This document shows, in pieces, positions 49,907 through 54,120 of a DNA stretch of 64,000 nt. The stretch's first letter is position 1. Each line of letters opens with the position of its first letter. Made by a program: the position numbers and the translations under genes. Below the pieces are notes generated by a model that saw only the letters and a program-made list of their open reading frames with translations, did not search any database and was not told the DNA's origin. Origin of the DNA: Armatimonadota bacterium (lineage in GTDB: Bacteria > Armatimonadota > Fimbriimonadia > Fimbriimonadales > GBS-DC). The stretch spans positions 112,930 to 176,929 of the forward strand of contig JBBIML010000010.1 of the NCBI GenBank assembly GCA_037444405.1. Reading direction: 5' to 3'.

Positions 49907-50779
49907 CTAAAACCCATGGGGGGCGATCGTTTCCAGGATCCGCCCCAGCTCCTCTTCTGAGTAGAACTCGATCACAATCCGCCCTGCCCCTCCCTCCATA
50001 TAAACCACCTTCACCTTCGTGCCCAGATACGCGCTCAGATTATGCTCCAATGCCCTGACCTCTGGAGGTGGAGGGGAGGGTAGGGGATGAGAGCGCGGAC
50101 CTGGATTAACAGGCTGTTCGGGCGAGCGCAACTCACGCGCGCGCAGCTCTGTTGCCCGCACGCTCAAGCCATCGGTGGTAATCTGCTGCCACAGCTGGCG
50201 TTGCTGCACGGGGTCTTTGACCATCAGCAGTGCACGCCCATGCCCCTCACTGATGAGACCGCTCTGAATGCTCTCCTGAATATAGGGAGGCAGTTGAAGC
50301 AGGCGTAGAGTGTTCGAGATAGCAGGTACACTCTTACCCACGCGCTGCGCTACCTGCTCCTGGGTTAGTCCGAACTCCTCCATTAGATGTCTGTAAGCCA
50401 GCGCTGCATCGATGGGATTGATGTCTTCACGCTGAAGATTCTCAATTAAAGCCATCTCCAGCATCTGCTGCTCGGATGGCGTGCGCACGATGGCAGGAAT
50501 ACGCTCCAACCCTGCCATCTGCGCCGCGCGCAGGCGACGCTCACCTGCGACCAGGATGTATTCTTCCGCCCCTTCCTTGCGCACGATAATCGGTTGCAAA
50601 ACGCCTACCTGTCGTATCGACTCTGCCAGCTCGCGCAACGACTCCTCATCAAAGGTTCGGCGCGGTTGATAGGGGTTCGGGCGAACCTGCGCAACAGGTA
50701 TCTCCTGGACCATGTTGCTTTCCAGATCGCCTTGAGCAAGCAGAGCGCTCAACCCTTTACCCAGCCCGCGACGCACCAT
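49907..50779 (-). CDS. parB: Chromosome partitioning protein ParB/Spo0J
   Basis: GLGKGLSAL, NPYQPR, AGERRLRA, ENLQREDI, HTH. Confidence 0.96.
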   Translation of the reverse strand: MVRRGLGKGLSALLAQGDLESNMVQEIPVAQVRPNPYQPRRTFDEESLRELAESIRQVGVLQPIIVRKEGAEEYILVAGERRLRAAQMAGLERIPAIVRTPSEQQMLEMALIENLQREDINPIDAALAYRHLMEEFGLTQEQVAQRVGKSVPAISNTLRLLQLPPYIQESIQSGLISEGHGRALLMVKDPVQQRQLWQQITTDGLSVRATELRARELRSPEQPVNPGPRSHPLPSPPPPEVRALEHNLSAYLGTKVKVVYMEGGAGRIVIEFYSEEELGRILETIAPHGF

Positions 50780-51557
50780 AAGCTTTCACCTCCTGTGCAA
50801 ATGCCTGATACGCGATTGCACCCCGCGAACGGGGATCGTACTCTACCACAGGCTGACCATAGCTGGGCGCCTCGCCAACGCGCACATTACGCGGAATCAC
50901 CGTGCGTGCCACTTTGACCCCGAAAAATTTGCGCACCTCAGCCTCCACCTGCTCTGCCAGCTTCGTGCGGGGATCATGCATCGTCAGCAGAACCTTCCAG
51001 ATTTCAAGCCTTGGGTTCAGGTGCTGCCTGACCAGATCGATGGTCTGCATCAGGCGCGAGAGACCTTCCAGCGCGTAATACTCGCACTGAAGCGGCACAA
51101 TCAGTCCATCCGCTGCTACCAATGCATTGACTGTTAGCAGTCCCAGAGAAGGTGGGGTATCAACGATAATCCACTGGTAGCGCTCTCGCAAGGGGGTCAG
51201 CAGCGTGCGCAGCACGGTTTCGCGGGCGATGCGCGTGGCAAACAGCAGATCGATCCCCGCCAGCTCGATGCTGGCAGGGATCAGATACAGATGAGCACGC
51301 CCAGTGGGTACAATCACCTTTTCTATAGGGCATTCCTCCTGCAGCGCGCTGAAAAGGTCGTACTCCAGCTCAGCAGTGGAAATACCCAGCCCGCTGGTCG
51401 CGTTCATTTGCGGGTCGGTGTCCACCAGCAGCACCTCATCACTCTGCGCCGCCAGCGCCGCTGCCAGATTGACAGCGGTGGTGGTCTTACCAACACCGCC
51501 CTTCTGATTGACAACTGCCAGAAGCCAGCCCGCGTTTGCCACGGCAGCTGGATTCAC
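50757..51557 (-). CDS. parA: Chromosome partitioning ATPase ParA/Soj (start may be GTG at 51542)
   Basis: NQKGGVGKTTT, DTPPSLG, QCEYYALEG, EAPSYG. Confidence 0.96.
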   Translation of the reverse strand: MNPAAVANAGWLLAVVNQKGGVGKTTTAVNLAAALAAQSDEVLLVDTDPQMNATSGLGISTAELEYDLFSALQEECPIEKVIVPTGRAHLYLIPASIELAGIDLLFATRIARETVLRTLLTPLRERYQWIIVDTPPSLGLLTVNALVAADGLIVPLQCEYYALEGLSRLMQTIDLVRQHLNPRLEIWKVLLTMHDPRTKLAEQVEAEVRKFFGVKVARTVIPRNVRVGEAPSYGQPVVEYDPRSRGAIAYQAFAQEVKAYGASRAG

Positions 51558-51633
51558 GGCGGGTCCATCGATTCCTGCAAAAATGGGGCGTTAGGGGGAC
51601 AGTAAGTGTCCCCCACAAGTTGTCGGGTCACAT

Positions 51634-51921
51634 TCAGCGGATGCGGTCTGCCAGCATGCGCCGAATAATCGCGCTGGTAACCATCTCCGCGGAGACCGTG
51701 TATTCGCCTGTGGCTATCTGCTGTTTGAGTTCGTTCACGCGCTCCTCGCGCACATCGGGAGTAGCACAGAGTTCACGCGCTACTTCCTGTGCCAGGCGAC
51801 GATTCTCCTCCTCCGAAACCTGCACAGGTTCAGGTACAGGCTCCAGAGGCGGATTCGTCTGTTGATGGCTCCGATGAAAGGTCGCCACCACTTTGCGTAC
51901 CTCTTCCAGCGAGATTTGCAT
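51634..51921 (-). CDS. flgM: Anti-sigma-28 factor FlgM
   Basis: PDVREERVNELKQQIATGEYTVSAEMVTSAII matches the FlgM C-terminal motif. Confidence 0.85.
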   Translation of the reverse strand: MQISLEEVRKVVATFHRSHQQTNPPLEPVPEPVQVSEEENRRLAQEVARELCATPDVREERVNELKQQIATGEYTVSAEMVTSAIIRRMLADRIR

Positions 51922-51968
51922 CGTTTCTGCCTCCTTCTCTTGCTGAATGGTTTCAGCAAGCCGGAGAC

Positions 51969-52050
51969 AGGCAACCCGGCTATCTGCTATTTCCAGCAGA
52001 CCCCTGGGCTTTGCGTCCCTGCATCACTGCAGGTTTGCCCTTTTCTGCCT
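51969..52050 (-). ncRNA. c-di-GMP-I (GEMM) riboswitch
   Basis: Minus strand AGGCAGAAAAGGGCAAACCTGCAGTGATGCAGGGACGCAAAGCCCAGGGGTCTGCTGGAAATAGCAGATAGCCGGGTTGCCT: GGCAAACC / GGGACGCAAAGCC / GGTCT / AGCCGGGTTGCC core, GNRA loop GUGA. Confidence 0.9.
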
Positions 52051-52069
52051 CGGCTCACTTCACTGCCTA

Positions 52070-52096
52070 TTATCGGCAGATATGCCCCGAATCTGG
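52070..52096 (-). promoter_or_regulatory. Sigma-28 (FliA/SigD) promoter
   Basis: Perfect -10 GCCGATAA (52077-52070); the -35 (CCAG) at 15-nt spacing is weak. Confidence 0.65.
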
Positions 52097-52140
52097 AGTC
52101 TCTCCATTTTCGGTAGTATCATCTGCCTTCTGGAGTCGTG

Positions 52141-54120
52141 CTATACGCGCGTCTGCTCCAGAATCCTGCGTAAACGCTGAATCTCATCGCGTAAAATCGC
52201 CGCCCGCTCGAACTCCAGCGCTTTAGCAGCCTCACGCATCTCCTGCTCCAGCTTGTTGATAACCAGCGGTAAATCCTCAAAGGCGACGCGATCAGTATCC
52301 ACCACACGATAGGCTTCACGCTCTTCCGCTACCCTGTAGGCACGCACGGTCTCGCGAACCTCTTTGCGAACCGTTTCGGGTTCGATCCCATGCTGGCGAT
52401 TGTATTCCAGCTGAATCTGGCGGCGGCGATTGGTCTCATCGATGGCACGCTGCATCGAGCCAGTGATTCGGTCGGCGTATAGAATCACCTGCCCGAACTT
52501 GTTGCGAGCTGCGCGCCCGATGGTCTGAATCAGAGCGGTCTCGGAACGCAGGAACCCCTCCTTATCGGCATCTAGCACCGCCACCAGCGACACTTCGGGC
52601 AGGTCAAGCCCCTCTCGCAGAAGGTTCACACCCACCACCACATCATACACGCCCAGCCGCAGGTCGCGCAGAATCTCCGCTCGCTCCAGAGTTTGCACAT
52701 CGGAGTGCAGGTACTGCACGCGAATGCCCAGCTCCTGCAGATACTCGGTGAGGTCTTCTGCCATCTTCTTGGTCAGCGTGGTCACCAGCACGCGCTCGTC
52801 ACGCTCGATACGGCGTCGGATCTCGCTGACCAGATCGTCGATTTGCCCCGCAGTCGGGCGCACGATAATCTCTGGATCGACCAGCCCTGTCGGGCGGATA
52901 ATCTGTTCCACAATCTGCTTGCTTACTTTGCGCTCGAACGGTCCCGGCGTCGCCGACACAAAAATCACCTGATTCACGCGCTCCAGAAACTCCTCGAAGC
53001 GCAGCGGGCGGTTATCCATCGCGGAGGGCAGCCGAAAGCCGTACTCCACGAGCGTCTTCTTGCGCTGCAGGTCGCCGTTGTACATGCCGTGTAGCTGGGG
53101 TACCGTCTGGTGTGACTCGTCGATGAACACGATAAAATCGTCCGGGAAGTAGTCCAGCAGCGTGTAAGGCGGTTCGCCAGGCTTGCGCCCATCGAAGTAG
53201 CGCGAATAGTTCTCGATGCCGTTACAGTAGCCCAGCTCGCGCATCATCTCGATGTCCATCTCGGTACGCTGGCGAATACGCTGTGCCTCCAGCAAGCGTC
53301 CCTGCGACTCAAAGTAGCGCACCTGTTGCTCCAGCTCCTCGCGAATCTGCTCGATAATCTGGTCAAGCCGATCCCAGGGTGTCACATAGTGAGTGGCGGG
53401 GAAGAAGGTGGCTCGTTCCAGCTCAGCGATGATTTCGCCTTTGAGCGGGTCATATTCGTAGATGCGTTCCACTTCGTCACCGAACAGCTCGATGCGGGTC
53501 ACCAGCTCCTCATCGGCGGGTTGCACATCGATCACATCGCCCCGAATGCGGAAAGTGCCGCGCCCCAGCACCATATCAGAACGCACATATTGCAGTTCCA
53601 CCAGACGCATCGCCAGCTCACGCGGGTCCAGAATATCGCCGCGCTTCACCGTGACAATGCTGCGCAGGTATTCCTGCGGTGAGCCAAGCCCATAGATACA
53701 TGACACGCTGGCAACCACCACTACATCACGGCGCTCCAGCACCGCCTGCGTGGCAGCATGGCGCAGGCGGTCAATCTCGTCGTTAATAGAGGCAGTTTTC
53801 TCGATATAGGTGTCGGTCTGGGGGATATAGGCTTCTGGTTGATAGTAGTCATAGTAACTGATGAAATACTGCACGGCGTTTTCGGGGAAGAAGGCACGAA
53901 ATTCCTGACAGAGCTGGGCGGCGAGCGTTTTGTTATGAGCGATTACCAGCGCGGGGCGCTGCACCTCCGCAATCACGGCAGCCATCGTGAAGGTTTTGCC
54001 CGTGCCCGTCGCGCCCAGCAGAGTCTGAAAATCGTAGCCCTTGCGAAGCCCTTCCACCAGCTTCGCAATCGCCTGCGGCTGATCACCACGCGGGGTGAAC
54101 TCGGTATTGAGCCGAAACAT
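52141..54120 (-). CDS. uvrB: Excinuclease ABC subunit B
   Basis: [43 protein letters not shown]. Confidence 0.98.

Follow-up and report, generated by a model that had tools for sequence, protein, structure and literature searches.

A c-di-GMP-I riboswitch between a sigma-28-type promoter and flgM in Armatimonadota: a predicted translational ON switch for an anti-sigma factor

In the 64,000-nt stretch of DNA analysed here (hereafter, the window), a sigma-28-type promoter is followed on the minus strand by a c-di-GMP-I riboswitch and then by the anti-sigma factor gene flgM. On folding models and conservation, this series probably forms a translational ON switch, and I would give this reading a probability of roughly 70%. 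It was preferred because the leader can form two mutually exclusive helices, because the predicted ligand-free minimum hides the Shine-Dalgarno (SD) sequence, and because enforcing the aptamer helix P1 exposes it. An ON switch by which c-di-GMP raises FlgM is the most likely mechanism in silico. The riboswitch class is known, while its regulatory target and direction were not found described before.

The flgM gene (51634..51921, minus strand; ATG at 51921-51919) encodes a protein of 95 aa, of which residues 42-86 match the Pfam family FlgM (PF04316; E = 3.9e-12; 46.6 bits against a cut-off of 25). By this match the ORF belongs to the FlgM family, as the first-pass annotation had proposed from the letters, and its putative anti-sigma function rests on the Pfam score and on the context. 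The gene lies outside any flagellar cluster. It is flanked by uvrB (52141-54120) and by parA and parB (50757-51557 and 49907-50779), all on the minus strand, and each of the two flanks, uvrB and parA, recurs in 21 of 30 related loci. A GC-rich hairpin, GGGGGACA-cuuac-UGUCCCCC, is found 3′ of the flgM stop codon (51594-51614) with a T-run about 10 nt further on (51579-51583). This hairpin, seen by eye and unflagged by the terminator scan, may terminate transcription weakly between flgM and parA. Elsewhere, the genome encodes a FliA/WhiG-type sigma factor (TIGR02479, 245.5 bits against a cut-off of 189.6), two flagellins together with a weaker third Flagellin_N match that was taken as a putative FlgL, and five GGDEF-domain matches. 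Thus, with FlgM, all parts of the proposed circuit exist in this genome. The structure of the FlgM-FliA complex of Aquifex has been solved.

A cmscan search of the whole window, which the first-pass annotation had named as a check, gave a single match at 52048-51966 (-). Against the c-di-GMP-I family RF01051, the match is full-length (1-87) and scores 61.8 bits, 27 bits above the cut-off of 35. It is the one RF01051 match in the 2.68-Mb genome (98.9% complete). Including the full P1, the aptamer spans 51964..52054 (minus strand), and it consists of the three helices P1, P2 and P3 with a GNRA loop (GUGA) on P2. Among 25 sequences of the window's family, P1 is 91.6% paired with 4 compensatory changes, P2 is 100% paired with 4, and P3 is 97.1% paired with 2; the covariation score of the aptamer in these sequences was matched by none of 500 shuffles. 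The ligand-contact residues G20, A47 and C92, numbered as in the Vc2 structures, correspond to G52039, A52012 and C51971 in the alignment to the Rfam consensus. The specificity base G20, which lies within AAGGGCAAACC and had been singled out in the first-pass annotation, is present in all 30 relatives listed.

The core of P1 is formed by GAGGCAG (52051-52045) and CUGUCUC (51970-51964); it is extended by GCC/GGC pairing, with C51963 bulged. CUGUCUC and C51963 together make up the switching strand CUGUCUCC (51963..51970, minus strand), which serves as the P1 3′ strand and also as an anti-SD sequence. It can pair either with 52045-52051 in P1 or with 51927-51934, where its complement GGAGGCAG (51934-51927) is the SD sequence itself. 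The ribosome binding site (51924..51934, minus strand) has GGAGG at 51934-51930, overlapping a copy of the P1 5′ strand, GAGGCAGAAA. This 10-mer occurs exactly twice in the window, at 52051-52042 and at 51933-51924. Its chance expectation is 0.08 per window, and two or more copies were seen in none of 100 shuffles. Between the switching strand and the ribosome binding site lies a connector hairpin, CUUGCUGAA-ACCA-UUCAGCAAG (51939..51960, minus strand; arms at 51960-51952 and 51947-51939), which is present in both predicted states and brings the anti-SD beside the SD. The repeat, the two alternative partners of the P1 3′ strand and the hairpin had all been read from the letters in the first-pass annotation, and each was recovered here at these positions.

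How the two helices compete was assessed by nearest-neighbour folding, a method that ignores tertiary contacts of the aptamer, ligand energy and co-transcriptional kinetics. Without ligand, the fold of lowest predicted energy is the one that masks the SD, at -62.7 kcal/mol (z = -4.85 against shuffles), and the pairs of the SD-masking helix have probabilities of 0.98-1.0 in the ligand-free ensemble. When P1 is enforced, the fold has -58.4 kcal/mol, and the SD and the AUG are unpaired. Positions -14 to +3 are unpaired with a mean probability of 0.71 when P1 is enforced, as against 0.37 when the P1 5′ strand is blocked. The gap between the two folds amounts to 4.3 kcal/mol at 37 °C and 1.6 kcal/mol at 70 °C; tight ligand binding in the c-di-GMP-I class can supply more than a gap of this size. 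No terminator-like element was found on the minus strand of the window leader. The models support the competition between P1 and the anti-SD helix as the predicted ground-state behaviour of the leader.

The putative -10 element GCCGATAA (52070..52077, minus strand) agrees with the sigma-28 consensus at 8 of 8 positions and lies 20 nt upstream of the Rfam aptamer match. The -35-like CTCCAG (52093..52098, minus strand) aligns with the CTAAAG of relatives and matches it at four of six positions. Relative to the bipartite consensus TAAA-N15/16-GCCGATAA, the window has TCCA-N16-GCCG; its -35 TCCA matches only two of the four bases of TAAA, and therefore the strength of the promoter in the window is uncertain. 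The same spacer is found at the flagellin promoter of the same genome, where a perfect CTAAAG-N16-GCCGATAA precedes a flagellin gene on contig 24. Since copies of GCCGATAA are not in themselves rare (the octamer occurs 234 times in the 2.68 Mb of the genome), the promoter call rests on conservation. With at most 3 of 14 mismatches, CTAAAG-N15/16-GCCGATAA was found in 72 of 88 related flgM leaders, as against 1 of 88 control windows taken 250 nt downstream, and the motif is perfect in 23 of the 88 leaders. In the window's family, 24 of 25 leaders have a -10 that matches at seven or more of the eight positions at a fixed distance from P1. At the aligned -35, most genera have CTAAAG, and three genera, among them that of the window, have CTCAAG or CTCCAG. 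A scan of the region gave no sigma-70-like promoter. These observations support a conserved promoter that is, by its motif, of the sigma-28 type, in agreement with the first-pass annotation. Read-through from uvrB, whose stop codon lies 63 nt upstream of the -10, may also reach flgM.

In the genome of the window, 44 sites have at most two mismatches to the motif. In a biased sample of 20 downstream ORFs, hand-picked from those behind the 44 near-matches and compared with Pfam, four are flagellar: a flagellin, a FliK-like protein, an FlgE/F/G rod protein and an FlgB-like rod protein. Near-matches to the sigma-28-type motif, with two mismatches, also precede two type II/IV secretion ATPases that contain an MshEN domain (G000:C14:7393-9084 and G000:C25:33963-35603); MshEN is a reported c-di-GMP-binding domain. 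As for the uvrB-flgM spacer, GACTCCAGA occurs twice in it, at 52129-52137 and 52092-52100, and the second copy includes the -35-like CTCCAG. A short hairpin, TGGAG-aga-CTCCA, overlaps this second copy, and it has a terminator-like score when read on the plus strand.

Is the switch conserved among relatives? The window's family was sampled with 25 genomes of six genera. The SD-masking helix comprises eight pairs, and 94.5% of its cells are paired. One of the eight pairs changes on both sides and six vary by single changes compatible with wobble pairing; the 3′ strand of this helix would be conserved in any case because it is mostly the SD itself. P1 comprises ten pairs in the family, and the switching strand is compatible with both helices across the 25 genomes. 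The connector hairpin is paired in 84.4% of cells, and four of its nine pairs change on both sides. In one genus (L010 and L014), the switching strand contains an additional A, and a C-to-U change after GGAGG matches it. The duplex of the anti-SD with the ribosome site is more stable than with shuffled sites (p <= 0.05) in 19 of the 25 family leaders, with a mean of -13.7 against -8.2 kcal/mol. When P1 was enforced, the modelled accessibility of the ribosome site rose by more than 0.1 in 21 of the 25 family leaders and fell in none. The idea of the first-pass annotation that c-di-GMP switches on an anti-sigma factor inside a sigma-28 loop thus gains support in silico. Over the order, the same model gave a rise in 28 of 48 leaders, a fall in one and no clear change in 19. 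Direct anti-SD complementarity was found in 0 of 9, 0 of 3 and 2 of 10 leaders of three sister families, whose platforms differ, with narrow windows that miss shifted P1 strands. Therefore, the mechanism is documented for the window's family and not for every lineage.

In the order as a whole, 52 of 61 genomes have an RF01051 match, and almost always exactly one. Since these small genomes have a single c-di-GMP-I match, c-di-GMP may have no RNA-level target in them other than FlgM. An FlgM-like ORF begins 24-46 nt downstream at 48 of the 50 order aptamer loci examined, and the remaining two loci are additional aptamers in genomes where another aptamer is linked to flgM. Two genomes of the order (G037 and G047) have two RF01051 matches. 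Their second aptamers (L009:1501-1594 and L011:1501-1593) score higher, 72-75 bits, and precede an ORF that exceeds 492 aa and continues beyond the end of the locus. Among the 48 ORFs behind order aptamers, 36 match Pfam FlgM at E <= 0.001, and the other 12 FlgM-like ORFs (alignment A1) miss this threshold. By eye, several FlgM-like proteins of one genus (g3) are without the GxY segment that precedes the conserved RR..AD motif of the C-terminus.

The proposed mechanism is as follows. The transcript would begin a few bases downstream of GCCGATAA, with about 12 nt preceding P1. In the absence of c-di-GMP, CUGUCUCC (51970-51963) is predicted to pair with GGAGGCAG (51934-51927), with the connector hairpin stacked between the two strands, so that the SD is hidden. 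Upon binding of c-di-GMP, P1 would close and the switching strand would pair with GAGGCAG at 52051-52045, leaving the SD and the AUG free. FlgM would then be translated, and this ON direction is the one expected in vivo. FlgM would presumably bind and sequester the FliA-type sigma factor and thereby shut the late flagellar promoters, including that of flagellin and its own. Therefore, high c-di-GMP would lower motility via the flagellar checkpoint. The whole circuit would constitute a negative feedback loop around sigma-28.

Two rival accounts concern the way in which the leader acts. The aptamer may be real while the ligand represses flgM, or acts via RNA stability or Rho, in which case c-di-GMP would lower FlgM. 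This account draws on precedent, since Cd1 of Clostridioides difficile, the best-studied flagellar c-di-GMP-I riboswitch, is an OFF switch (PMC5386303). It also draws on the leaders whose accessibility did not clearly change (19 of 48 in the order and 22 of 40 in the phylum), and folding models can mislead. However, the minus strand of the leader is without a terminator-like element, the SD is unpaired when P1 is enforced, and only 2 of the 88 modelled leaders lose accessibility upon P1 formation. Lower anti-sigma factor at high c-di-GMP would, moreover, raise late flagellar expression, against the usual direction of c-di-GMP action, which is established knowledge. Repression is thus considered unlikely. 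A still less likely account is that the helix over the SD forms constitutively or in response to temperature and has nothing to do with the aptamer, the repeat being a by-product of purine-richness and GCCGATAA being no working promoter. A repeat of the 10-mer is hardly expected by chance (0.08 per window), both helices share exactly the same switching strand, which fits both of them in 25 genomes, and 72 of 88 leaders have the promoter motif at a constant distance, compared with 1 of 88 controls. These points outweigh the facts that SD sequences are purine-rich and conserved regardless, that GCCGATAA occurs 234 times in the genome, that the gap between the folds narrows with temperature, and that close relatives seem to be hot-spring bins.

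The remaining alternative concerns the ligand, and it appears to be the least probable of the three: the RNA would sense 3′3′-cGAMP, as a GEMM-Ib member, or the unknown ligand of the c-di-GMP-I-GGC variant. The name that cmscan ranks first for the window aptamer is in fact that of the variant (RF03167, 60.0 bits against a cut-off of 59), because of clan competition. Yet, RF01051 outscores RF03167 in bits (61.8) and stands 27 bits above its own cut-off, whereas RF03167 is 1 bit above. The two families differ at the first base 3′ of GACGC, which is A52012 in the window. The window reads GACGCAAA there, the same as the RF01051 consensus, while the RF03167 consensus is GACGCGAA, in which G replaces A at the intercalating position. 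The comparison of this distinguishing base was made between the window aptamer and the two Rfam consensus lines. In three relatives (L059, L060 and L061), cmscan likewise names the aptamers as the GGC variant, with 59.5-63.4 bits. As for cGAMP, an A at position 20 is the mark of the GEMM-Ib class, reportedly from work of Kellenberger and of Nelson in 2015; position 20 is G (G52039) in the window, and this G is kept in all 30 relatives listed. Both the GEMM-Ib and the GGC assignments were rejected on these bases. Since G20/A47/C92 is canonical, the window aptamer is, by its sequence, a canonical c-di-GMP-I aptamer and an ordinary member of its class, neither of the GGC variant nor of the A20 cGAMP type. 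The translational ON switch governed by c-di-GMP remains the preferred reading.

The survey of flgM leaders across the phylum, which the first-pass annotation had suggested, was performed with an even sample of 151 Armatimonadota genomes. RF01051 matches were found in 72 of them and FlgM in 101. Among the matches listed, 42 genomes have the aptamer and the FlgM domain on one strand, with the aptamer 152-263 nt upstream, and ten further genomes of the order, with weak aptamer matches, were linked by coordinates. In total, the aptamer is linked to flgM in at least 52 of the 101 FlgM-bearing genomes, about 150-265 nt upstream of the FlgM domain. These genomes, at least 52 in number, belong to 15 families, or to 18 families when those seen only in the order search are included. 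At 40 phylum loci, the promoter motif is widely kept, and GGAGGCA(G/A)A or GGGGGCAAA is a frequent form of the ribosome site. In these loci, which represent 13 further families, accessibility with P1 went up in 17 of 40 leaders and down in one, with no clear change in 22.

At ten of the phylum loci, a U-run follows a segment complementary to the aptamer core. For instance, L103, L104, L106, L110, L115-L117 and L124 (families f25, f22 and f37) have a segment such as GGGUUUGCC and a U-run 3′ of the aptamer. In the minimum-energy fold, this type of segment pairs with the aptamer core AAGGGCAAAC, giving a terminator-like helix. In these U-run leaders, the predicted helix may be a terminator that competes with the ligand-bound aptamer fold, which would make them an ON platform of a different build, working by anti-termination. 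The platform appears to differ between families: in some the SD is masked, and in others the aptamer core pairs with the 3′ arm of a terminator-like helix. Outside the phylum, no Rfam match was found at any of the 34 flgM loci examined. No aptamer was found at 30 flgM loci from a sample of 30 genomes of Bacillota (the phylum of Brevibacillus), and the flgM loci of a Clostridia MAG, of a bin titled Bathyarchaeia, of Brevibacillus and of Salsuginibacillus gave no Rfam match. It is tempting to view the promoter-riboswitch-flgM cassette as the ancestral master switch by which Armatimonadota, across the phylum, change between swimming and settling, with its platform rebuilt between families and its ON direction kept, although I hold this broader reading only tentatively and would not quite bet on it. 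On that reading, selection would have preserved the rule that c-di-GMP makes FlgM through a turnover of mechanisms.

No description of a riboswitch upstream of flgM was found in the literature searched, in which subscription journals were outside coverage, and no paper was found on c-di-GMP riboswitches in Armatimonadetes. The first-pass annotation had regarded the wiring as unusual. This stands as far as published descriptions are concerned, but the wiring is conserved across the phylum and is not a one-off. Known routes by which c-di-GMP curbs motility include PilZ brakes, transcription factors, an OFF riboswitch on an early flagellar operon, and the arming of an anti-sigma factor in Streptomyces. 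If the proposal is true, a riboswitch that turns on a classical anti-sigma-28 factor would be a further and very direct route, in which one short RNA couples the second messenger to the flagellar checkpoint inside the sigma-28 feedback loop. The RNA would also be a natural ON-type c-di-GMP sensor from probable thermophiles. The cassette is worth testing, being conserved in a poorly studied phylum and containing the only c-di-GMP-I match in many genomes, and the RNA of about 150 nt is short enough for in vitro work and for heterologous reporters.

How does the cassette compare with known systems? Vc2 of Vibrio cholerae is the type example of the RF01051 c-di-GMP-I family. The window aptamer resembles it in the three-helix architecture, in the GNRA loop on P2 (GUGA here) and in G20/A47/C92, and its score is well above the cut-off. 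It differs from Vc2 in the flgM gene context and in the promoter type, and it is the only copy here and in most genomes of the order. With regard to the promoter, flgM of Salmonella has a class 3 promoter. The flgM promoter of C. difficile depends on sigma-D (PMC5386303). The likeness to such sigma-28- or sigma-D-dependent flgM promoters is that the anti-sigma gene is transcribed by its target sigma factor, which results in negative feedback. The difference is that no riboswitch between the promoter and flgM was found described in those systems.

Cd1, which precedes the flgB operon of C. difficile, has a sigma-A promoter and acts by premature transcription termination (OFF) on an early operon that encodes sigma-D (PMC5386303). 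The two systems share a class I (GEMM) aptamer in a flagellar gene leader and a lowering of flagellar expression by high c-di-GMP, which is a prediction in the present case. In contrast to Cd1, the window leader has a sigma-28-type promoter, an SD-masking helix without a terminator, a predicted ON direction and an anti-sigma factor as its target. The closest system in logic seems to be the RsiG-c-di-GMP-sigma-WhiG complex of Streptomyces, where the ligand binds a protein complex in an organism without FlgM (PMC7005675). There, too, c-di-GMP reinforces an anti-sigma factor, and the sigma factor held by it belongs to the flagellar FliA/WhiG clade. By comparison, the ligand would act here on the flgM mRNA and raise the synthesis of the anti-sigma factor.
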